Origin: Eubacteriales bacterium
GTDB lineage: Bacteria; Bacillota; Clostridia; Oscillospirales; CAG-272
DNA: 58,057 nucleotides
Direction: 5' to 3'
NCBI GenBank assembly: GCA_045594305.1
Contig: JAZNYH010000049.1
Span: 1-58,057, forward strand
Under the pieces are notes generated by a model that saw only the letters and a list, made by a program, of their open reading frames with translations, had not been told where the DNA came from and searched no databases. This document shows positions 4,432 through 33,170 of the stretch, one piece after another (positions within the stretch are counted from its first letter, which is position 1; every line of letters begins with the position of its first letter). Both the position numbers and the translations under genes were made by a program.

Positions 4432-6039
4432 TTAGTGCTTGAGCTGGGCAAAGCGTGTCGCTCCACCCTTTGAAAAGTAGTTTTCTATAATTATACATAT
4501 GATTGCATTTAGTGCTGTTATTATCGCTCCTGATATCCAAAAATCAATGCTAAGCACTGCAAAAACCATACACACCATAAATAGCACAAGTGACCAAAGC
4601 ATTGTGCCGAGCATTGTGCCAAACACAGCAAAGCCCTGCTTTACTGCTACTGTTTCGTTTTGCCAATCGAATTTTGGGAATTTAAGTCCAAGAAGCAAGC
4701 CAAAGTAGGCTGTGAGAGCTACGGTTGTTGCTCCTACAAGGATACAGAATATAAAGTTAAGCACGCTGAACTTAAATGCCACGGAAACAATAATTGCGCC
4801 GATTAGGGTGCATGGCAGGCAAATTGCCATATGGGCAAGAAGCTTTGCTCTTAAAATCCTTTTTGGCTCTATTGGTGCGGATTGAAGCACCCATAGGGAT
4901 TTATCCTCAAGGGAGATTGAAGGTGCACTCACAAGATTCATTGATGACATAAACATTACAATCATTGAGCCTATTGCGGGGATAAAGTTAGCAATCATTG
5001 GCTCTTGTGCTGCAAGCAGGTTGATTTCCGGACTTGCAAGTGCAATTAAAACGGCAAAGATTATTGTCATAATGTTTCCAATTCCTGCATTTAGAACATA
5101 TGCTGAGGAGCTGAAAAACCTCTTTATTTCCTTTTTGAAAAGTGCTGTCTGTACTGTGCTTACCTTTTCCTTGCCTGCTACATATTTTATAGTCTTAGCG
5201 CCTGTCTTTATGGTTATGATTTTTATAAAGCTACGGTCCAAGAGGAAATATGCAAGGATTGCAGGGAGTATTGTGCAAAGAGCTACCCAAAGGAAGGATA
5301 GCAAATCAGCCTCTGCCATTGCTCTGCCCATCCAATAGAATAGGGCGGTTGATTTAAGACCTGAAAAGTCTATAACAGTGTTCTCATCTGTCGAGCCTAT
5401 AAAGCCGCCAAATGCTCCACACGCAAATAGATATATTGCCATAAAGAGCACGGTAAAGATAACGCTTATCGCAGTTTTATTTTTAAGTCTTGCAGAGATT
5501 ATTGAAATTAGCCAAGCAAGAAGCACGGAGATTGTTATTGTAAATAGTGGAAGGAGCAAAAATACAAAAAGGGTAAGGATTGCTCCAAGGAGTGAGTAGC
5601 CAACCATAACGGCGTGAACGCCTATTACGGGGAGTAAAACTATTGATTCAAGACCATAGTTTACAATAAGAAGCATTATAATTCTGCTAAGGAAAATGTA
5701 TTTTGGTGGGATTGGCATAGCGAGCAAGAGCTCGTTATCCTTGCTCTCAAAGATTTGAGTTTTTGCAGTAAATACGCTTCCAAATACGCAAAGAGCTGAG
5801 GCTATGAGGGTTGCCAATGTTTGAGATACCCATAAATCTCCCGTTTGCGTTGCTGATATTGTCATTCCCACAGCCATCATTCCAAATGCCATCATAAGAT
5901 AGCCGATAAGAACGACAAACAATATAATCAAAAGAACCTTTGCCACAGGGGATTGTGGCTTCTTTCTCTTGCTTGCTCCTGCTCCCGAGAATGACGCAAG
6001 GAATGCAGAAAGCTTTGATTTTAAAAGTATTTTAAGCAT
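4432..6039 (-). CDS. ABC exporter permease (multi-TM)
   Basis: Many hydrophobic helices; overlaps the ABC ATPase stop; ATG at 6039 follows GGAGG. Confidence 0.85.
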   Translation of the reverse strand: MLKILLKSKLSAFLASFSGAGASKRKKPQSPVAKVLLIILFVVLIGYLMMAFGMMAVGMTISATQTGDLWVSQTLATLIASALCVFGSVFTAKTQIFESKDNELLLAMPIPPKYIFLSRIIMLLIVNYGLESIVLLPVIGVHAVMVGYSLLGAILTLFVFLLLPLFTITISVLLAWLISIISARLKNKTAISVIFTVLFMAIYLFACGAFGGFIGSTDENTVIDFSGLKSTALFYWMGRAMAEADLLSFLWVALCTILPAILAYFLLDRSFIKIITIKTGAKTIKYVAGKEKVSTVQTALFKKEIKRFFSSSAYVLNAGIGNIMTIIFAVLIALASPEINLLAAQEPMIANFIPAIGSMIVMFMSSMNLVSAPSISLEDKSLWVLQSAPIEPKRILRAKLLAHMAICLPCTLIGAIIVSVAFKFSVLNFIFCILVGATTVALTAYFGLLLGLKFPKFDWQNETVAVKQGFAVFGTMLGTMLWSLVLFMVCMVFAVLSIDFWISGAIITALNAIICIIIENYFSKGGATRFAQLKH

Positions 6040-23370: not shown

Positions 23371-23865
23371 TTATTCATCATCGCCTGTTTGAACAGGGGT
23401 TGCTTGTGGAACAAGTGCACTCATTCCATGGCCTACTCTTACCTGATTAAAGGTGATGGCGTTGAGTGACATATCGCTATATGTCTTTGTTGTTGCATAT
23501 TTATCTGCATTTATGTACTGAGCAACCTTGACATTGCCCTCTGCGTCGGTTGCGTAAATTCCAACCACAAGGTTAAGGGAATCTGCAATCTCTGCACTAA
23601 ATGAGGAAATGTCTACATTCAAGGTTACATATTTCAAATCATCAACTGGAATCATTACACCCTTTGCAGATGTATTGAGTGAGCCGTCTACAAAGAATGC
23701 TTGATTTGACGCTACTGTGCCTGCATTTGCCATAACTATACCAAATGTGAAGCTTGGATAAAGCTCCTTGTATTTGGTAAGAGCCTCCTTGTTTACAGTA
23801 AAGCCTGCTTTAAGTGAATAGCCGTCAGGTCCTACCGAGTAGCCCTTTGCCTCAAACATTGGATC
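23371..23865 (-). repeat. Conserved 3' module, copy 1
   Basis: 21 mismatches in 495 nt against 25130-25624 by manual alignment (~96%). Confidence 0.95.
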
Positions 23866-24915
23866 TGCAACAGCTTCCTTATCGCTTATTGTACAGCCAT
23901 CATTTGTGCAATCGGTAATAATCTTGCCTTCTACTGCATAACCATCTGCGTAAATTATTTTAGTTGCGAATACATGCACCAAGGCAGTTGTGGTTTCAGC
24001 TCCACATCTTGAACAGGTATCTGCTGTTTCACAGCTTGTGTCTGGATCCTCGTGAATGTTGTCGAAATAATATTCACAGTGATTTGCATATACAACCTTT
24101 GATACCCAGCTTGAGGCATCAGTGGTTAGGTCTGCTATAAAAGCAGAGTCCGCTGTACCTGTAAAGATGATTTTTTCAACGCTACAGTTATCAAGAGAAT
24201 ATCTACTGTTAACACCTGTACAGCCCTTTGGAATTATGTAGGTTACGGGTGTTGTTGTCTTGCCATTTGTGATTTTACGAAAATCCTGTGGGATAATACT
24301 ATTATATCCCTCTGGGAATTTAATCACAGAAAGCTTATTACAGTTTTTGAATGCATTTGCTCCAAACGAGGTTACTGTGTTTGGGATTTCAATGCTTTCA
24401 AGTGATATGCAATCATTAAAGCATTCATTTGGAATTTGTGTTATTCCTGTGCTTGGCAATTTAATGCTAACAAGAGATGAGCATCCTGTAAATGATGCAT
24501 AGTGAAAGAATGTGCCCTCGGGTAGATAGACATCTATCAAGGATGAACAATCTTGATATGTCCAGTTTAGCCTTGCGTTTTTAAATACCTCTACTCTTAT
24601 CAATGATGCATTTGTATAGCTCTCTCCGGTTTTTTCGTTTAGCTTGGTGAACGAAAGCCTCATATCCGTACCCGAAGAGCCATTGTAGATGTAGTATGCA
24701 GGATAGGTTGTATAGGTGCCGTCAGCGTTTTTAAGCACCGCTCTTGATGTGGTATCATAGTCATTCACCTCGGCAATGCCATCAACATATTTAACATCGC
24801 CATACTCATTTGATGCCGAGCCAGTTACTGCTGCACTTGTAGTAATAGCAAATACTGAAGCTATTACAGCTATCACAGTAGCTACAAGCAAAGTGGTTAG
24901 AAATTTCTTTTTCAT
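23371..24915 (-). CDS. Secreted BspA-type LRR protein, paralog 1
   Basis: Signal peptide, LRR_5 repeats (CFNDCISLESIEIPNTVTSFGANAFKNC), Cys/His linker, conserved C-terminal module. Confidence 0.88.
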   Translation of the reverse strand: MKKKFLTTLLVATVIAVIASVFAITTSAAVTGSASNEYGDVKYVDGIAEVNDYDTTSRAVLKNADGTYTTYPAYYIYNGSSGTDMRLSFTKLNEKTGESYTNASLIRVEVFKNARLNWTYQDCSSLIDVYLPEGTFFHYASFTGCSSLVSIKLPSTGITQIPNECFNDCISLESIEIPNTVTSFGANAFKNCNKLSVIKFPEGYNSIIPQDFRKITNGKTTTPVTYIIPKGCTGVNSRYSLDNCSVEKIIFTGTADSAFIADLTTDASSWVSKVVYANHCEYYFDNIHEDPDTSCETADTCSRCGAETTTALVHVFATKIIYADGYAVEGKIITDCTNDGCTISDKEAVADPMFEAKGYSVGPDGYSLKAGFTVNKEALTKYKELYPSFTFGIVMANAGTVASNQAFFVDGSLNTSAKGVMIPVDDLKYVTLNVDISSFSAEIADSLNLVVGIYATDAEGNVKVAQYINADKYATTKTYSDMSLNAITFNQVRVGHGMSALVPQATPVQTGDDE

Positions 24916-24962
24916 AATTTTCTCCTCTTATGGTAATATATACAAAATACTTTTACAGCATA

Positions 24963-24991
24963 ATTATATCATATATAAATATACTTGTCAA
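24963..24991 (-). promoter_or_regulatory. Consensus promoter of LRR paralog 1
   Basis: TTGACA-N17-TATAAT on the minus strand. Confidence 0.8.
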
Positions 24992-25129
24992 TATTGTAAT
25001 ATACAAAATTTTCGAGCCTCGTGCTTTTTACAACAATACATAAAATTTCCCTTGTCGTTTTTGCAAAATAAAAATCCACTTGCCATTAAGGGTCGAGTGG
25101 ATTTTTATTTAATTATTTTCTAACGAGGA

Positions 25130-25624
25130 TTATTCCTCATCGCCTGTTTGAACAGGAGCTGCTTGTGGAACAAGTGCGCTCATTCCATGGCCTACTCTTA
25201 CCTGATTAAAGGTGATGGCGTTGAGTGACATATCGCTATATGTCTTTGTTGTTGCATACTTATCTGCATTTATGTACTGAGCAACCTTGACATTGCCCTC
25301 TGCGTCGGTTGCGTAAATTCCAACCACAAGGTTAAGGGAATCTGCAATCTCTGCGGTAAATGAAGAAATATCTACATTCAAGGTTATGTATTTCAAATCA
25401 TCAACCTCAATCATTACACCCTTTGCTGATGTATTGAGTGAGCCGTCTACAAAGAACGCTTGATTTGATGCTACTGTGCCTGCATTTGCCATAACTATAC
25501 CAAAGGTAAAGCTTGGATAAAGCTCCTTGTATTTGGTAAGAGCCTCCTTGTTTACAGTAAAGCCTGCTTTAAGTGAATAGCCGTCAGGTCCTACCGAATA
25601 GCCCTTTGCCACAAACATTGGATC
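25130..25624 (-). repeat. Conserved 3' module, copy 2
   Basis: Direct repeat of 23371-23865. Confidence 0.95.
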
Positions 25625-26956
25625 CATTGACTTGTTTACAATGTCGTATTTTGTACAGCCCTCATTTGAGCAACCGTAGTTATATACACCGTTTGAATCG
25701 AAGCTTACATATACAAGGGTTTCGTAAAGCTCGTGTCCCTGTGTGCCTGCAACATTATGACCACATTCGCCACATATTACGCCATCCATACAGTCGCCTG
25801 TGCCCTCATAATCATGGATTCCGTTATAGAACACGCTACATGGATTAACATTAAATGTAACTCTGCTATTTGCCTTTGCAGTTACAATATTCTCGCCAGA
25901 GTCGGTACCTGTTGCACCATTTTTGCCCTCTGAAATTTTCTCGATAAGAGTATCCCATTGTTCCTCTGTTCCACAATAATAGAACTGTATATTTGGACAG
26001 TTGGTAAAGTATTGGTGAGCTGAGCTTACATCAACATTGTCAGCAGTAAATGTAGCTGGGAAATATACCTTTACATTTGCTGCACCTCTTACATAGAAGT
26101 TATCACCTGTTACGCCCTTAAAGCCCTTGAAGTTAGCTCCAAATACGAGCTTTTCAAGCTTGCCCTCTGTGCCAAACATACTAAATTGAAGTGCTCTATA
26201 ATGTACTTCCTCAACTGTGTTTGGAAAAACAAGCTCTTTTAGATTTTTACACATATAGAAGCATCTATAAGGGATAACTTTTATCTGCGAGCCTTCCTCA
26301 AAGGTGATTTTTTCAAGCTGAGTATCTTGGAAAACTCCAAGGTCATCATGCTCTATAAAGCTGGGGATTCCCTTTGGTACAAAAAACTCCTTTAAGTTAC
26401 TTTGAGCTACTGCGTGAAGGCCCATATAAGTAATTGGGGTGCCTGGCTCAATATCAGCAATTATCAATTGAGTATTTTGGAACATTCTATCAATAATTTC
26501 AGTTGCCGTTTTTGGAAAATAAAAATATTGAATAGGTACATTTCTATTAGCACCATAATAGCCGAATTGGAAGCTTGAATCAAACTTTTCAATTCCCGAT
26601 ATACCGTCATTTACAAAATCATCTCTTAGGTTAACTACAACAACTCCCTTTTGCTGTGAGCCTCCATAAAATTTTGACACATCGTTAAAGCTTGCCTTTT
26701 TGTCAGTAACGGTAATAAGATTAACCGCTCTGTCGCTAACAAGCTTGTTGTCGGTGTTAATATACCAAACAAGAGCGTAGCCCTCTGTATCATAAAGATT
26801 TACTACGGGATTACTAACGCTTGCGTCTCCTACTGTAAAGCTTCCGCTAAGAGTAACGGTAGTGTCCTTGTTGATAGTAGTTGCGCTTACTGAAACTGCG
26901 AAAACGCACATTATCGCTACCAAAACAAGCATAAACAAAATAAACCTTTTTTTCAT
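25130..26956 (-). CDS. Secreted BspA-type LRR protein, paralog 2
   Basis: ATG of MKKRFIL follows AAGGAG; signal peptide, LRR_5-like repeats, same C-terminal module. Confidence 0.88.
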   Translation of the reverse strand: MKKRFILFMLVLVAIMCVFAVSVSATTINKDTTVTLSGSFTVGDASVSNPVVNLYDTEGYALVWYINTDNKLVSDRAVNLITVTDKKASFNDVSKFYGGSQQKGVVVVNLRDDFVNDGISGIEKFDSSFQFGYYGANRNVPIQYFYFPKTATEIIDRMFQNTQLIIADIEPGTPITYMGLHAVAQSNLKEFFVPKGIPSFIEHDDLGVFQDTQLEKITFEEGSQIKVIPYRCFYMCKNLKELVFPNTVEEVHYRALQFSMFGTEGKLEKLVFGANFKGFKGVTGDNFYVRGAANVKVYFPATFTADNVDVSSAHQYFTNCPNIQFYYCGTEEQWDTLIEKISEGKNGATGTDSGENIVTAKANSRVTFNVNPCSVFYNGIHDYEGTGDCMDGVICGECGHNVAGTQGHELYETLVYVSFDSNGVYNYGCSNEGCTKYDIVNKSMDPMFVAKGYSVGPDGYSLKAGFTVNKEALTKYKELYPSFTFGIVMANAGTVASNQAFFVDGSLNTSAKGVMIEVDDLKYITLNVDISSFTAEIADSLNLVVGIYATDAEGNVKVAQYINADKYATTKTYSDMSLNAITFNQVRVGHGMSALVPQAAPVQTGDEE

Positions 26957-27016
26957 TGTTTTCTCCTTATAATTTTTGTAGTTTTTATCGAGCATTTGTG
27001 AAAATAAGAAATAATA

Positions 27017-27045
27017 TTGACAACTCTACACATTTATTTTATAAT
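27017..27045 (+). promoter_or_regulatory. Consensus promoter of the AraC gene
   Basis: TTGACA-N17-TATAAT. Confidence 0.75.
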
Positions 27046-27119
27046 GATTGTAGGTAATTGTAAATAGATTATTTTATTGAATATTTGTATTATTTTATTA
27101 TTGATTATCAAAAAGGAGG

Positions 27120-27974
27120 GTGAAAAAATTGAAGCTACATCGTTATAGAAATGTTGAAATCTTGAATCTAAAAAGCAAAAAATCATCCGATGCACCATTG
27201 ATTATAAACCTTGCAAACGACTGCTTTACTTATTTTGAGCCCTTTGCATACGACACATATAACGATCAAGGACGAGATGATTATTTCTTGATCTATGTGA
27301 CAGACGGAATTTTCAACACTAACATAGATGGCACTGCCTTTCACTTAGGAAAGGGCTCAGTGATTTTATATCCTCCCAAATACAAATATCACTATTGGGG
27401 AGAGCCACCGTCAAAATATCTTTGTGTGCATTTTACCGGATCACATGTAGAAACGCTTTTAGCGGATTTAGGCTTTCCAACATTAAAGCCTTATACATTA
27501 GAAATTGAATTTTCCCCTAAAATCAAATCCTTGTTTGATAAAATAATTGAGCAAGATATGACAAATGCTCCTTTTTTGAAATATTCATTAGCTTGTCTTT
27601 TGGAGGAAATTTTACTTACCATTGCCACAAACAGAGTGAGGAGTGATGGTTATCGCACATTCAAAAAATCAATCAAATACATTCACGAGAATTATACAGA
27701 AAAAATACAAATTCCCTATCTTGCAAAATTAGAGGGCTTAAGCAATTCAAGATACATTACTCTTTTTTCTAAGGAAATGAAAAAAACGCCAAGCACTTAT
27801 ATACTTGACCTAAGGCTTGGCAGAGCCTGCGAGCTTCTTTTGACAACGGATATGGAAATTAGCTTGGTTGGTGCTTCATCTGGGTACAAGGACCAGTATT
27901 TTTTCAGCAAAATATTCAAAAAGCATATAGGAATATCACCTCAGGAATATAGAAAAAGGAACAAGGAAAGCTAA
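27120..27974 (+). CDS. AraC family transcriptional regulator
   Basis: Cupin-like N-terminus; C-terminal double HTH (GYKDQYFFSKIFKKHIGISPQEYR); AGGAGG RBS with GTG start. Confidence 0.92.
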   Translation: MKKLKLHRYRNVEILNLKSKKSSDAPLIINLANDCFTYFEPFAYDTYNDQGRDDYFLIYVTDGIFNTNIDGTAFHLGKGSVILYPPKYKYHYWGEPPSKYLCVHFTGSHVETLLADLGFPTLKPYTLEIEFSPKIKSLFDKIIEQDMTNAPFLKYSLACLLEEILLTIATNRVRSDGYRTFKKSIKYIHENYTEKIQIPYLAKLEGLSNSRYITLFSKEMKKTPSTYILDLRLGRACELLLTTDMEISLVGASSGYKDQYFFSKIFKKHIGISPQEYRKRNKES

Positions 27975-28026
27975 AAGGGTTTTCAGCATTGGATAAAGAA
28001 AAGGGCACAAAATGTGCCCTTTGTTT

Positions 28027-28500
28027 TTATTTATCATCGCCTGTTTGAACAGGAGCTGCTTGTGGAACAAGTGCGCTCATGCCGTGGCCTACTCTTACCT
28101 GATTAAGGGTTACGGCGTTGAGTGACATATCGCTATATGTCTTTGTTGTTGCATATTTATCTGCGTCTATGTACTGAGCAACCTTGACATTGCCCTCTGC
28201 GTCGGTTGTGTAAATTCCAACCACAAGGTTAAGAGAATCTGCAATCTCTGCGGTAAATGAAGAAATATCTACATTCAAGGTTACATATTTCAAATCATCA
28301 ACCTCAATCATTACACCCTTTGCTGATGTATTGAGTGAGCCGTCTACAAAGAAGCTATTGCCTGATGCTACTGTATTTGCGTTTGCCATAACTATACCGA
28401 AGCTGAAGCTTGGGTAAAATCCCTTATATTCTTCGAGAGCAGTGATATTTACCTTGTATCCAGCCTTAAGTGAATAGCCGTCGGGTCCTATCGAATAGCC
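28027..28500 (-). repeat. Conserved 3' module, copy 3
   Basis: Near-identical to copies 1 and 2 to about 28347, more diverged beyond. Confidence 0.9.
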
Positions 28501-30018
28501 GAGGCAATTAAAGAGTGCAGGCGCTTCATCTGTGATATCCTCAGCACCGCATTTTGCACACTTAAGAGTTTTGCAGCCCGCCTTACTAAAATCAGTATAA
28601 GCAATATTAATTACTGTTGCATTTTCTAAATCGTGCACGCCACCGTTATTGGAGTTTGGTATTTCAACCTCACCCATACTTGCTCCACAGAAGCAATATG
28701 TATTTCCCCATGCATTATCTACACAGGTAGGCTCTTTTGTTATAACAGCTTTTCTTACATCCTCTAAATGAACAAAGCCGTCAGTAGTAAAGTTTAAATT
28801 CTTAGCGAGTGGAGAACAAGTTCCCTCCTTGCACTTATAGATATATGCTCCCGTGTTAGTGTAGTTATTATAACCACTTATAGTGAAATTAATATCGCCC
28901 TGGTTCGGATTTGCAAAAACTACTGAAACATAATTCATCTCGCTGGAAAAGGCAAATTCAGTCATATTTCCCAAGAACACAACGGTTATTGCTGTTTCCG
29001 GTGTTCTTGCAATGCCCTCAGCGTTAGTTGCAAACATCCAGCTGCCTGTTATTTTAGTAACATTTTCGCCAAACACCAAATATTTGTTAATGCTATTACA
29101 GTTTTTAAACGCTTCATATTCAACGGTCTTCAAGTTTTCTGGAAAATAGTAAACCTCAGGTCTTGTAAGCTCATTTGGATTATTTACAAAGTATAATGAT
29201 GTACATTTTACAAAGGCTCCTTCGTTTGAAGAGCTTTGACCGGTAATAGTTAAAATGCTATCCGGCAAATAAAATGCTTCAAGAGAGGTACAAGCAAAAA
29301 AGCTCTTTGCTTTTATTGTTTGAAGATTTGAGCTTTCAGAAATAACTACTCTTTTAAGGCTACTACATTCATCAAATGCCCAACCACCTATTTCAATAAC
29401 ACTGTCGGCAAGTTTAACATACTCAAGAGCATAGCAGTTGCCAAATGCCTCGTGCTGAGCTGTAGCATCAAGTCTTGTTAGTGTTGTACAGGTTGTCATA
29501 TCAACAAACTTTAGAGATGTTGAATCTCTTAATCCGGACATATATGATTGACACTCTGTCCTTGTACATCCGCCATCAATTACCTTGTAGCCATCAGGGA
29601 TTTCAATAGCTATAACGCTATTTTTGTCATAGGTGGCTTTACATGGATTCTTTTCGTTAATATCATCAAAGCTTATATTAAATATTTCGTTTGCATATAA
29701 TGTGCCGAGGTCGTGACCCCAATATGTATCAGCTTCATAAAACTTTGTGATATAATAGGTTGGATAAACGTGTGTGCTTCCGCAAGAGCAGCTTAATTCA
29801 ACTCTTGCATTTACTACGGTGCTTGCGTAGCTTGCATAAATTTTAGGGGTAATATGCTCACTTGCTTCAATTTCGACAATGGTCTCCACAGTCTTTCTGT
29901 TAAAATATCCCTCATAGGTATTAACGGACTCTTGTAGTGTAAGAGCGCTTGTCGATAGCGCCAAAGCGAAAATCACACTAACGAGCATCAAAACGGTTAT
30001 TAAAATCTTCTTTTTCAT
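28027..30018 (-). CDS. Secreted BspA-type LRR protein, paralog 3
   Basis: Signal peptide, LRR_5 repeats, HxxxxCxxxG..C.CG linker, same C-terminal module. Confidence 0.88.
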   Translation of the reverse strand: MKKKILITVLMLVSVIFALALSTSALTLQESVNTYEGYFNRKTVETIVEIEASEHITPKIYASYASTVVNARVELSCSCGSTHVYPTYYITKFYEADTYWGHDLGTLYANEIFNISFDDINEKNPCKATYDKNSVIAIEIPDGYKVIDGGCTRTECQSYMSGLRDSTSLKFVDMTTCTTLTRLDATAQHEAFGNCYALEYVKLADSVIEIGGWAFDECSSLKRVVISESSNLQTIKAKSFFACTSLEAFYLPDSILTITGQSSSNEGAFVKCTSLYFVNNPNELTRPEVYYFPENLKTVEYEAFKNCNSINKYLVFGENVTKITGSWMFATNAEGIARTPETAITVVFLGNMTEFAFSSEMNYVSVVFANPNQGDINFTISGYNNYTNTGAYIYKCKEGTCSPLAKNLNFTTDGFVHLEDVRKAVITKEPTCVDNAWGNTYCFCGASMGEVEIPNSNNGGVHDLENATVINIAYTDFSKAGCKTLKCAKCGAEDITDEAPALFNCLGYSIGPDGYSLKAGYKVNITALEEYKGFYPSFSFGIVMANANTVASGNSFFVDGSLNTSAKGVMIEVDDLKYVTLNVDISSFTAEIADSLNLVVGIYTTDAEGNVKVAQYIDADKYATTKTYSDMSLNAVTLNQVRVGHGMSALVPQAAPVQTGDDK

Positions 30019-30104
30019 GTTTTTCTCCTTTTGATTTGAAATAGCTTTCTTTTCATAAATTTTCTCTTTTTGATTTGAATTTTGTATTAAAGTATCTTAA
30101 ATAG

Positions 30105-30135
30105 AGTATAAACTATGACCTTAGGTTAAGGTCAA
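30105..30135 (-). promoter_or_regulatory. MerR-type promoter/operator of LRR paralog 3
   Basis: TTGACC-N19-TATACT; spacer contains the dyad ACCT-N-AGGT; 18/19 identical to the spacer at 33146-33164. Confidence 0.8.
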
Positions 30136-30170
30136 TAGGTTTTTAAAAATTATTTATTAAAAATTTTAAG

Positions 30171-31376
30171 CTAAAGCTCCTCGAAAACGAGCATACCGTT
30201 TTCCTTCGCCCTTGCCGCCTTAAAGGTCATTGAGCCTGCATAGCCGTCTATTACCTTAAAGCCTGTAAACACAAGTCGCCCGTTCCATTCTGCACACTTT
30301 GGCACGCCTGCACAGGGAATGAGTGTATCATCTATTGCCTCAAAGTCCTCAAAGGGCTTACTTGACACAAGATATCTTGCCCTACCACGAAGGCTAAATA
30401 CGAGATAGTATTTTCCGTTATACTTGAAATAGTCGGGGCATTCGGGGTGGTCGCTATTTGGAGCCTTATAGATTGGCTCATCGCACTCATCCCATTTTTC
30501 CAAATCCTTCGACACATAGTGAGCCAAAGCACCCTTATTCTCCTCGACAAGAACTGTTGTCAGAAGCATATGATAGGTCCCGTCCTCTGCCATTATAACC
30601 TTTGGATCTCTTGCGACCTGACTATTATATTTTGAAGAAACGAAAAAGCCAAAGCTCTCATCCTTTTCGAAGTGGTAGCCGTCTGAGGAAACGCTTCTGC
30701 TAATTATTGCAGGCAAGCCGTTTGCACGCCTAATTGTGTAGAAAAGATACTCCTTGTCACCATTTCGTATCCAAGACCCTGTGCATATAGAACCCTCTTC
30801 CTTGCTCGTTATAGGCACTGCCATAGGGTGAGAGCTCCACACCTTAAAATCCTTAGTTGAGATATGCTCCCATTGGTGAGCGCCCATTCCCCATTTGCTT
30901 TTGTGGTGATGTCTGTCTTTAAGATACAAAACATGATATTCGCCATCCTTCACATATGGCATACAATCGCCTACAAATACTCCGTTTCCGGGATACCAGC
31001 CCTCTGCATTTTCAAATGTCGATATAACGCTTGGTGTTGGCTTTTCCTCCTTTATGTATTCGCCCAGATGTATGTCCGCCCTTGTGTCGATGGTATCGCC
31101 TAAATCAAAAAGCCTTTCGCCATAGGGCCACTCCTCATCCATTATCACGCCATTTACATATAGCTCTATTCTATAATCAAGGAATATAGCCTCTACCCTG
31201 TCGCCTATTTCCACCCTGCTTGTTAGAGTGAGAGGTCTTTCGTTATAGTCGTAGAGGACCGATATTGTAAGGGTATTGTCAAGTGCTAATATTTCAAGCG
31301 TTTTTTGCCCGTTTTTTTGAGCAAACGCACACAGGGGAAGCTCTTTTATTTCAAATGCTATTTTAATATCACTCAT
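30171..31376 (-). CDS. Glycoside hydrolase family 32-like protein
   Basis: GDCMPY (nucleophile variant), WEHISTKD, RDP and ECPD motifs. Confidence 0.85.
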   Translation of the reverse strand: MSDIKIAFEIKELPLCAFAQKNGQKTLEILALDNTLTISVLYDYNERPLTLTSRVEIGDRVEAIFLDYRIELYVNGVIMDEEWPYGERLFDLGDTIDTRADIHLGEYIKEEKPTPSVISTFENAEGWYPGNGVFVGDCMPYVKDGEYHVLYLKDRHHHKSKWGMGAHQWEHISTKDFKVWSSHPMAVPITSKEEGSICTGSWIRNGDKEYLFYTIRRANGLPAIISRSVSSDGYHFEKDESFGFFVSSKYNSQVARDPKVIMAEDGTYHMLLTTVLVEENKGALAHYVSKDLEKWDECDEPIYKAPNSDHPECPDYFKYNGKYYLVFSLRGRARYLVSSKPFEDFEAIDDTLIPCAGVPKCAEWNGRLVFTGFKVIDGYAGSMTFKAARAKENGMLVFEEL

Positions 31377-33106
31377 ATTTGTTTTTCTCCTATGTATTCG
31401 CCAAAGCCATTATTATAGCTTATTTTACCTATTGCAAGTGCCGAGAAAAGCGACGCTCCTGTTGCTGCCTCCTCTTCTATTTTGCTGGTTGTAACAGATG
31501 CATTAAAGCGTTTCGCTATTATGGCTTTTAAAATCTCAGTTCTTTTGACAGCTCCGCCCGAGGCAACAATGTGCGTTTTTTTGTCGGGCACGCTTTCATA
31601 AAGCTCGTAAAGCTCATTACACATTCCGTTGAGCACTCCAAGGACAAGAGCCGACGGGGTAAAGCCGTATCTATCAATCTCTTTTATAGAGCCTCTTAGG
31701 TTAGGGTTGCTTCTCTTGCCACAAAAATAAGCGTCGACCAAAAGCCCACTCTCGCCATTTTCAAACGCCTGTGTAGCGAGCTTATCCATTACGCTATATT
31801 GCGATTTTTCCTGTATTCCTAAGCTAATGGTATAGCTTCTAAAAAACTCCTCGAGCATCGAATAAGCAAATCCACCACAAAGGGCAGAGCCACAAACAAG
31901 ATACTTGCCCTCGACAAATGGTCTTAGCTCCAATTCCTTGTCAACATCCAAGTATTTATCGCTAACATATGAAATTTGGGACCCTGTGCCTATATTTAAC
32001 AGCATAGTGTCCTCGTTTTTATCAACCGAGCCCAAAAAGCTCGCTTGATTATCTCCAATTGGCACACAAACAGGGATTTCTCTGTATTTGCCAATCACGA
32101 GGCTCTTTTCTGTTACCTCGGGCAAAATGCTTATGTCAATACCAAGTAGCGATAGCTTTTCTGCCTTGAAGCAGTTACTCTTCATATCAAGCATTCCAAG
32201 GCTTGCGCCTACTGATGTGTGAGTAATTGGCCTTTTATTTTTGCAGATTTCCATAGCAAACAAATCCATTATGGTACAAATTCCCACAGCCTCGCTTGGT
32301 ACATTTTTGTTTAGCATATTGTAATAATGAGTTGCTATGCCATAGCCAGTTGAGATACGCTCCTTTGTTATGTCATAAATTAGCTTACAGGTGCTTTTTT
32401 CGCCATTTATAGACACATCTGCACGCTTATCCTGCCAGTTAATAAGGTCTGATACGGCTTTTCCGTTTTCATCTATGTACACTATTCCGTGCATTTGACC
32501 AGTTATTCCAATGCTGACTATATTTTCATAGGTGTCAATTATATGGTTAAGTAGTCTTTTAGCCTTCTCTATGATTATAGAAGCACTTTGCTCGGAAAAT
32601 GTGCCCGTTTTGGTATAGGAGCTATGTGGAAGGCTATACGCCTCAGCCTGCTCCTTGTTGTCAATATCGTACACAACTGCACTAATGGTTGTTGTGCCAA
32701 TATCTATTCCTACACAAAGCGTGCCGTAGCTCTTAGAGGTTGCCCGCTCGCTCTCGATAAAGTCACTATCGCTTTTAGATAGCTCATCAATAGAGGTCTT
32801 GCTCAAAATGCTCTCACAAATGCGATACTTCTCCGAGTTTTTGCCACTTTCCTTTAAGATTTCAGCCTTTCGCTTCTCCATCAGCTCATCTATACTCATA
32901 ACGCCAAACAAGTACAGCTTTATGTCGGATATGGCTATTCCTACGCTTCTAAAAAGCTTTATTTCCTTTAAGGTGGCAACATCACTATCGGTATAGCTAC
33001 GATAGCCGTTTTCCTCTCTTAAAACCTTAATAAGCCCCTTGCTTTCATATAGACGGATTGCCTTTGCAGTAAGCCCCGTTATTTTTTCAACATCATTTAT
33101 CTTCAT
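31373..33106 (-). CDS. MerR HTH fused to an FGGY (sedoheptulokinase-like) carbohydrate kinase
   Basis: MerR N-terminus (IRLYESKGLI..RSYT); kinase motifs GIDIGTTT, TGQMHG, WQD, GDNQAS and NIGTGSQ. Confidence 0.88.
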   Translation of the reverse strand: MKINDVEKITGLTAKAIRLYESKGLIKVLREENGYRSYTDSDVATLKEIKLFRSVGIAISDIKLYLFGVMSIDELMEKRKAEILKESGKNSEKYRICESILSKTSIDELSKSDSDFIESERATSKSYGTLCVGIDIGTTTISAVVYDIDNKEQAEAYSLPHSSYTKTGTFSEQSASIIIEKAKRLLNHIIDTYENIVSIGITGQMHGIVYIDENGKAVSDLINWQDKRADVSINGEKSTCKLIYDITKERISTGYGIATHYYNMLNKNVPSEAVGICTIMDLFAMEICKNKRPITHTSVGASLGMLDMKSNCFKAEKLSLLGIDISILPEVTEKSLVIGKYREIPVCVPIGDNQASFLGSVDKNEDTMLLNIGTGSQISYVSDKYLDVDKELELRPFVEGKYLVCGSALCGGFAYSMLEEFFRSYTISLGIQEKSQYSVMDKLATQAFENGESGLLVDAYFCGKRSNPNLRGSIKEIDRYGFTPSALVLGVLNGMCNELYELYESVPDKKTHIVASGGAVKRTEILKAIIAKRFNASVTTSKIEEEAATGASLFSALAIGKISYNNGFGEYIGEKQI

Positions 33107-33139
33107 AGATTTACCTCTCAGGGATAATACTCTATTATT

Positions 33140-33170
33140 ATTTTAAACCATGACCTTAGGTTAATGTCAA
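33140..33170 (-). promoter_or_regulatory. MerR-type promoter/operator of the MerR-kinase/GH32 operon
   Basis: TTGACA-N19-TAAAAT with the same dyad-containing spacer. Confidence 0.82.

Follow-up and report, generated by a model that had tools for sequence, protein, structure and literature searches.

A candidate one-component regulator joining a MerR head to an FGGY sugar kinase, and its two 19-bp-spacer promoters, in a bacterium of the Eubacteriales

Introduction

The signals known for transcriptional regulators of the MerR family comprise metals, drugs, redox stress, light and nitrogen status. In TipAL, BmrR and Mta the MerR head is followed by a sizeable C-terminal sensor domain, and TipAL is encoded behind a MerR-type promoter of its own. 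The E. coli promoter PcopA, which belongs to the CueR system, reads TTGACC-TTCCCCTTGCTGGAAGGTT-TAACCT, and this sequence is located 31 nt upstream of copA in 5,417 of 5,426 E. coli genomes. Here we describe a related arrangement in a stretch of 58,057 nucleotides from an Eubacteriales bacterium (GenBank assembly GCA_045594305.1, contig JAZNYH010000049.1, positions 1 to 58,057), which is referred to as the window throughout. One of its genes encodes a MerR head fused to a carbohydrate kinase of the FGGY family (MerR-FGGY fusion), and the winged helix-turn-helix of this head (MKINDVEKITGLTAKAIRLYESKGL) is most similar to that of CueR. Two minus-strand promoters, site A and site B, have a 19-bp spacer like PcopA, and site B also shares its -35 element; as in PcopA, their dyad starts at the AC of the -35 element and is centred on base 14 of the 31-mer. 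From the analysis of the window, its genome and related genomes we consider it likely that the fusion is a one-component MerR-type factor with the FGGY kinase as its effector module, which would control its own operon and the gene of a secreted leucine-rich repeat (LRR) protein through the dyads in the two spacers.

Results

Two minus-strand promoters with 19-bp spacers share one dyad

Site A reads TTGACA / TTAACCTAAGGTCATGGTT / TAAAAT on the minus strand (-35 element 33170..33165, spacer 33164..33146, -10 element 33145..33140) and is located 33 nt before the gene of the MerR-FGGY fusion. Site B, TTGACC / TTAACCTAAGGTCATAGTT / TATACT (-35 element 30135..30130, spacer 30129..30111, -10 element 30110..30105), lies 35 nt past the stop codon of the gene for a hydrolase resembling glycoside hydrolase family 32 (GH32-like) and 86 nt before the LRR gene. 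Each spacer is exactly 19 bp long, 18 of the 19 bases are identical between the two sites, and the predicted transcription starts are near 33133 (site A) and near 30098 (site B). A sequence-only reading of the window had already described both promoters, with their spacer length, their near identity and a central dyad, and had assigned site A to the operon of the MerR-FGGY fusion and the GH32-like hydrolase and site B to the LRR gene; its coordinates and plus-strand strings were exact, and both gene assignments were correct.

Table 1 Positions of the two promoters, the genes and the further elements of the locus.
Feature	Position	Strand	Evidence or remark
Site A, MerR-type promoter of the regulator operon	33140..33170	minus	47.0 bits in the weight-matrix scan; same promoter at 46/46 fusion genes examined
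Site B, second MerR-type promoter	30105..30135	minus	44.8 bits in the weight-matrix scan; conserved block in the nine-species intergenic alignment
MerR-FGGY fusion, 577 aa	31373..33106	minus	Pfam, NCBIfam and PDB sequence matches; AF2 model
GH32-like hydrolase, 401 aa	30171..31376	minus	Pfam match; motif alignment
Secreted BspA-type LRR_5 protein, 663 aa	28027..30018	minus	Pfam; poor AF2 model
Upstream open reading frame in the LRR leader, 13 codons, MKRKLFQIKRRKT	30015..30056	minus	TGA stop overlaps the LRR start (ATGA)
Bidirectional terminator-like hairpin, 10-bp stem	28000..28022	.	closes the LRR transcription unit

The putative operator, 21 bp in length, has the pseudo-palindromic sequence ACnnT(r)ACC-N3-GGT(y)AnnGT, which at site A spans about 33167..33147 and whose core, T(A/G)ACC-N3-GGT(C/T)A, has its centre at spacer base 8. 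Among 44 distinct sites the dyad symmetry peaks at this base, with 65% complementary positions compared to 19-48% for shifted centres. The two half-sites covary across the family, from TGACC/GGTTA in the genus to TCACC/GGTGA and TCCCC/GGGGA further out, and the half-sites of some members, e.g. TTCCCCTAAGGGGAT, are nearly those of PcopA. The regions around sites A and B are alike within the 31-nt promoter block and not beyond it, from which we conclude that the two sites do not stem from a recent segmental duplication. A scan for competing promoters, which allows spacers of 16-18 bp only and is hence blind to the 19-bp sites themselves, found no other minus-strand promoter with at least 10/12 matches in either intergenic region. 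The two LRR paralogs encoded just downstream of the gene behind site B (paralogs 1 and 2, 23371..26995, minus strand) have ordinary promoters with 17-bp spacers, namely TTGACA-17-TATAAT (24960-25000) and TTTACA-17-TAAAAT (27040-27070), and the 19-bp geometry is thus a particular feature of the paralog behind site B, the third of them, rather than a habit of the genome.

The operator occurs with the MerR head and is confined to two sites in the genome

A promoter of the form TTGAC(a)-N19-TAnAAT was found 17-74 nt upstream of the fusion gene at all of the 46 distinct full-fusion loci of other species, the MerR heads of which show 41-88% identity, while this generic pattern is expected by chance only 0.016 times per 160 nt of the same DNA. 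Site A therefore has a counterpart at every fusion locus examined. The operator was missing at all of the 37 kinase loci without a MerR head. One of these head-less loci (L076) has kept the promoter skeleton TTGACATT...GTTATGTTTTATAAT with its 19-bp spacing, and its dyad core has decayed to TTTAAAAA.

The same association was seen at the level of genomes: among 41 genomes of the genus and the order, the site is present in 12 of 12 with a full fusion and in none of the 29 without one, which include a genome (G021) whose kinase has lost its MerR head. The reversed control pattern gave two matches in total in the 41 genomes. In addition, a six-frame search identified the fusion as the only MerR-family protein (PF13411) of the window's genome. 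The central proposal of the sequence-only reading, i.e. that one MerR-type regulator, the fusion, controls its own operon and the LRR gene through dyads in 19-bp spacers, is supported by these counts together with the conservation of site B throughout the clade, which is described below.

The absence of any further copy from the window, which had previously been judged by eye, extends to the whole genome. Within the window, the 19-nt palindromic core matches only at sites A and B, and 100 shuffles of the window gave no match at all. With up to three mismatches, sites A and B are still the only occurrences in the whole 1.85-Mb assembly (95% complete), and a weight matrix built from 32 sites of the genus retrieved both sites (scores in Table 1) and nothing else with a score of at least 14 bits.

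A few loci deviate from the common arrangement. In G014 (C49:73933-75641) the fusion frame is broken into two pieces, with one TAG, and both operator sites persist; in L083 and L084, loci of two RUG metagenome-assembled genomes, in-frame stops follow head residue 48 (near 5646 and 217, respectively). These broken frames could be pseudogenes or assembly errors. In G037, a genome of another family with a regulator 48% identical, identical operator promoters are inverted relative to each other, with a distance of 35 nt, at the end of one contig (C12:34640-34735), and the operator promoter recurs at the start of another contig (C1:37-67). This arrangement reflects either two divergent promoters or an artefact of the assembly. 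Note, two of the three site copies in this genome are located at contig ends, and these two were not counted as separate targets.

The regulator combines a MerR head with a complete FGGY kinase

Residues 1-66 of the fusion form a MerR winged helix-turn-helix (PF13411, 58.2 bits, cut-off 21.6; PF00376, 38.3 bits, cut-off 28.2), and the head of the AF2 model comprises a helix-turn-helix, a beta wing and two further helices. Residues 130-577 constitute a complete FGGY carbohydrate-kinase fold (PF00370, 77.2 bits, cut-off 28.8), and PF02782 is on record for most of the homologues listed. The AF2 model of the fusion has a pLDDT of 86.6 and matches the kinase 3ll3 in Foldseek with a TM score of 0.77 (E 5e-28).

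The kinase motifs DxGTT, WQDxR, GDNQA, GTGS and SGG are invariant in 33 aligned sequences, which holds for D135, G137, T138, T139, W224, Q225, D226, R228, G351, D352, N353, Q354, A355, G373, T374, G375, S376, S516, G517 and G518. The protein reaches the cut-off of none of the named FGGY substrate classes compared (XylB, 114 versus 380; GntK, 91 versus 649; GlpK, 71 versus 590). Likewise, it is not a CueR: the CueR model TIGR02044 scores 55 bits compared to a cut-off of 147.4 and aligns with residues 1-65 alone, and the chain beyond residue 110 consists of linker and kinase. More than 3,600 database matches to the fusion were retrieved, and the best 120 of them are all two-domain proteins from gut and rumen Clostridia, for which the database name is just 'MerR family transcriptional regulator'. 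Two Lachnospiraceae loci (L025:5923-7335 and L026:5995-7332) encode a MerR head 63-64% identical to the one studied here, followed by a non-FGGY body of about 380 aa at the C-terminal side. This type of head appears to have been joined to other sensor modules as well.

Site B is kept in the clade of the window, and relatives have further sites before carbohydrate genes

In a tree of the kinase bodies, the window falls into a clade of nine sequences with 100/100 support, and site B directly follows the GH32-like gene in all nine of them. Where the contig continues, site B precedes a gene for a secreted protein with LRR_5 repeats or with the C-terminal module that these proteins share (see below). 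In the alignment of the intergenic region of the nine species, the conserved block comprises exactly the promoter and the ribosome-binding site, and the proteins encoded behind site B are only 20-36% identical to the LRR protein of the window. Site B was also found in three further lineages (L021, L061 and L093). In one genome (G015), an identical site B is followed by the gene of a secreted protein without LRR repeats, which carries the same C-terminal module.

In relatives, further sites were found before genes of glycoside hydrolase (GH) family 4 (GH4, in two genomes) and before the genes of a GH36 alpha-galactosidase, a GH29-like protein, a GH38 protein and a lipoprotein. One of the GH4 sites is located about 291 kb from the regulator gene, and genes for a GH3 enzyme and a transporter of the major facilitator superfamily (MFS) follow. 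The number of sites ranges from one to seven per genome in relatives and is two in the genome of the window. From the position of these extra sites before glycoside hydrolase genes we conclude that the predicted regulon is a carbohydrate regulon; as judged from its operators, it is composed of carbohydrate-active enzymes and secreted LRR-type proteins.

A GH32-like hydrolase is the near-constant partner of the kinase

The GH32-like gene overlaps the regulator gene by 4 nt (ATGA). Its product is a cytoplasmic five-bladed propeller without a signal peptide (PF00251, 84.9 bits, cut-off 22.1). In an alignment with the GH32 chain 8a9y, its motifs GDCMP (with the nucleophile Asp), RDP and ECP correspond to FVGDPMP, RDP and ECP. 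The protein has no match to PF08244, the GH32C beta-sandwich, and its chain ends shortly past the propeller; a 125-aa N-terminal extension has no domain assignment.

At nearly all loci examined, the gene next to the FGGY gene on its downstream side is GH32-like, and this includes kinases that lack the MerR head. In the tree, such head-less pairs (L022, L076-L079 and L090) branch from within the fusions, which indicates that the DNA-binding head was lost repeatedly, and since the head-less kinases are still paired with the GH32-like gene, the kinase should have a function of its own. In a Tyzzerella metagenome-assembled genome (L115:18-6899), a secreted GH32 protein of 2293 aa with GH32N, GH32C and a 3-keto-disaccharide hydrolase-like domain is encoded directly upstream of a head-less pair, which hints at a role of that pair in the processing of fructan breakdown products. 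Another head-less locus adjoins genes for an aldose epimerase and a second FGGY kinase. Neighbourhoods of head-less kinases were therefore discarded as a guide to the substrate, as the giant GH32 on the one hand and the aldose epimerase with the second FGGY kinase on the other hand give no consistent answer.

The gene behind site B encodes a secreted LRR protein

The LRR protein (PF13306, 61.7 bits, cut-off 27.7) starts with a signal-peptide-like N-terminus, MKKKILITVLMLVSVIFALALSTSA; the chain continues with the LRR region and a Cys-rich linker, and about 190 aa at the C-terminus form a conserved module. Its AF2 model, based on an alignment of 15 sequences, is poor (pLDDT 60.6) and was not used for a fold search. 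The linker and the module, ALFxCLGYS...GFTVN...YGxFA, which has no Pfam match, are common to the secreted LRR proteins of the window (23371-30018) and of relatives, and in the window paralogs and both L004 proteins the module ends with LVPQ..P..TGD(D/E)x. Pfam searches revealed no sortase signal, lipobox, SLH domain or cell-wall-binding repeats, and the C-terminus, ...PVQTGDDK, has no hydrophobic tail. In the absence of a recognisable anchor, secretion is all that can be claimed for this protein. The proposal of the sequence-only reading that sugar sensing is coupled to the display of a surface protein is thus upheld in part: sensing of a sugar is made likely by the intact kinase motifs and the glycoside-hydrolase regulon, and secretion is indicated by the signal peptide, but display on the surface is not backed by any anchor that we could recognise.

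The leader of the LRR gene contains a short upstream open reading frame (Table 1), the first residues of which match those at the start of the LRR orthologues of L003 and L004, and the ribosome-binding block TTCAAATCAAAArGAGAAAA is present twice. The reading frame looks like the remnant of an older start codon, and the arrangement like a scar of an exchange of the LRR N-terminus, which may couple translation.

Discussion

How the fusion may work

According to the model that we favour, the CueR-like head probably binds as a dimer to the operator in the 19-bp spacers of the two sigma-70-type promoters. Site A would drive the regulator and the GH32-like hydrolase, which would amount to positive autoregulation, and site B the next gene, i.e. 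that of the LRR protein. By analogy to MerR, CueR and BmrR, the unliganded fusion would keep the promoters inactive. Binding of a sugar, possibly together with ATP, in the kinase cleft would close the two lobes and turn the DNA-binding heads. The resulting under-twist and kink of the spacer would bring the -35 and -10 elements into line for RNA polymerase. FGGY kinases close their two lobes upon substrate binding, and this closure is a plausible source of the movement that would turn the heads. Activation as the direction of regulation is suggested by the invariant 19-bp spacer. The kinase part is most likely still enzymatically active, as suggested by the head-less orthologues that are paired with the same hydrolase, which would make the fusion a 'trigger enzyme'.

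We take a ketose or an oligosaccharide derived from fructan, sucrose or raffinose to be the probable effector, because the GH32-like partner is obligatory, a giant secreted GH32 is encoded beside a head-less pair, and alpha-galactosidases belong to the predicted regulons. In a bolder version of the model, activation would be mechanically coupled to the catalytic cycle: each lobe closure on sugar and ATP would twist the heads and the promoter. Promoter activity would in this case reflect how fast a sugar derived from fructan or raffinose is phosphorylated, and not just ligand occupancy, and a secreted LRR protein that keeps the cell at its food source would be induced by the same signal. We put this flux sensor forward as a speculation that has a small chance of being correct.

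Observations that weigh against the proposed reading

Several observations count against parts of this picture. The presumed dimerisation helix (residues 72-101) is not continuous in the AF2 monomer, which has helices at 72-86 and 92-101 with a break at 87-91. Shuffle statistics on the covariation of the half-sites were supportive but ignore phylogeny. No site B was detected within 7 kb of many of the more distant fusion loci, and at one of these (L010) an LRR gene is located behind an ordinary promoter; the link to the LRR protein is thus limited to the clade of the window and a few other lineages, whereas the autoregulatory site is universal. Furthermore, the intergenic scan found no terminator between the GH32-like gene and site B, and read-through from site A could therefore also feed the LRR gene.

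As to the effector, the GH29-like and GH38 members of the regulon fit poorly to fructan, sucrose or raffinose, and the regulons of relatives mix alpha-galactosidase, fucosidase-like and mannosidase families, so that no single sugar stands out. To our knowledge, FGGY kinases do not phosphorylate fructose. In metatranscriptomes, a gut data set (X20) yielded five short contigs that are 90-99% identical to the regulator and GH32-like genes, including one across the junction of these genes, and two digester data sets (X23 and X24) contained contigs only 90-97% identical over the LRR gene, which belong to another organism. Such contigs are sparse or come from other strains, and none of them locates a transcription start.

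Other explanations

The alternative that fares best concerns the signal rather than the architecture. Glycerol kinase in Firmicutes is phosphorylated by a protein of the phosphotransferase system. In a similar way, the fusion could respond not to a free sugar but to the ATP/ADP ratio, to the sugar phosphate that it produces or to phosphorylation by this system, in which case the promoters would report the energy or carbon-flux state of the cell. The ATP-binding motifs are as conserved as the sugar-binding ones, and a regulon that covers several unrelated glycoside hydrolase families in relatives would fit a general carbon signal equally well. Still, the substrate and catalytic motifs WQDxR and GDNQA are invariant, and the tie of the kinase to one GH32-like hydrolase in nearly all loci suggests a defined substrate, which is why we regard a non-sugar effector as unlikely.

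A pure repressor, which would sit on the spacer, block RNA polymerase and be released by the sugar without any activation by DNA distortion, is an improbable alternative. It is true that the operator overlaps the -35 element and the spacer, and that HspR, TnrA/GlnR and CarH act as repressors although they belong to the MerR family. However, the spacer is exactly 19 bp long in all of the 46 autoregulatory sites and likewise in all of the second sites. This length is poor for unaided sigma-70 and a hallmark of MerR-type activation, the neighbouring LRR paralogs use 17-bp spacers, and repression alone would give no reason for keeping a crippling spacer length.

We consider it very improbable that site B is a passive promoter copy without a regulatory role or that another protein binds the sites. 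Promoters can travel with recombining heads of LRR genes, and the LRR leader indeed carries a recombination scar, but site B persists in every one of the nine members of the clade, whereas its flanks and the protein encoded behind it have diverged, and a different binder is at odds with sites that never occur without the MerR head in a genome that encodes no other MerR-family protein. Finally, the perfect 8-bp palindrome of site B, TGACCTTA-ACC-TAAGGTCA, was flagged as terminator-like by our scan, but the idea that it forms an RNA hairpin terminating the upstream operon was rejected and deserves next to no credence, since the stem has only three G-C pairs, the tail TAGTTTATAC is no T-run, relatives keep the TrACC-N3-GGTyA dyad and not the extended palindrome, and the same sequence lies upstream of the regulator gene, where there is nothing to terminate.

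Implications

If activation of both promoters by a sugar-bound MerR-FGGY fusion is correct, a large family of sensors with an intact sugar kinase would add carbohydrate sensing to the MerR mechanism and would represent a new kind of trigger enzyme. The small and sharply bounded regulon makes the system unusually easy to test, as it consists of one protein, two 31-bp sites and a few candidate sugars. In view of the conserved link to secreted BspA-type LRR proteins, uncultured gut fermenters may make the output of an adhesin-like protein dependent on the presence of a particular dietary sugar, which provides a testable idea of when such bacteria attach to plant particles or mucus.

Comparison with known systems

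Searches of the full-text literature gave no published account of an FGGY kinase with a MerR head or of the regulon of such a protein. The predicted mechanism is of the known MerR type, with a head and an operator that resemble those of CueR, and it is the combination of MerR and FGGY with its regulon that appears to be new as far as we could find. The fusion differs from CueR in that the metal-binding loop with its two cysteines is missing, an FGGY kinase of 450 aa takes the place of the small effector segment at the C-terminus, and the putative targets are carbohydrate genes and a secreted LRR protein instead of metal efflux. The sensor also differs from those of TipAL, BmrR and Mta, as it is not a GyrI-like or TipAS drug-binding domain but an ASKHA/FGGY enzyme fold with intact catalytic motifs.

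The use of a sugar-kinase fold as a carbohydrate-sensing module is shared with the ROK regulators NagC, Mlc and Bacillus XylR. These proteins belong to another kinase family and have another DNA-binding head, they repress or activate ordinary promoters in the classical way, and they have generally lost kinase catalysis, whereas the catalytic motifs of the fusion are invariant. With its predicted enzyme activity, the fusion would join the trigger enzymes BirA, PutA and NadR, in which one polypeptide likewise serves as a metabolic enzyme and as a DNA-binding regulator of the same pathway, and it differs from them in both parts, namely in a DNA-binding domain of the MerR class and an enzyme of the FGGY class.

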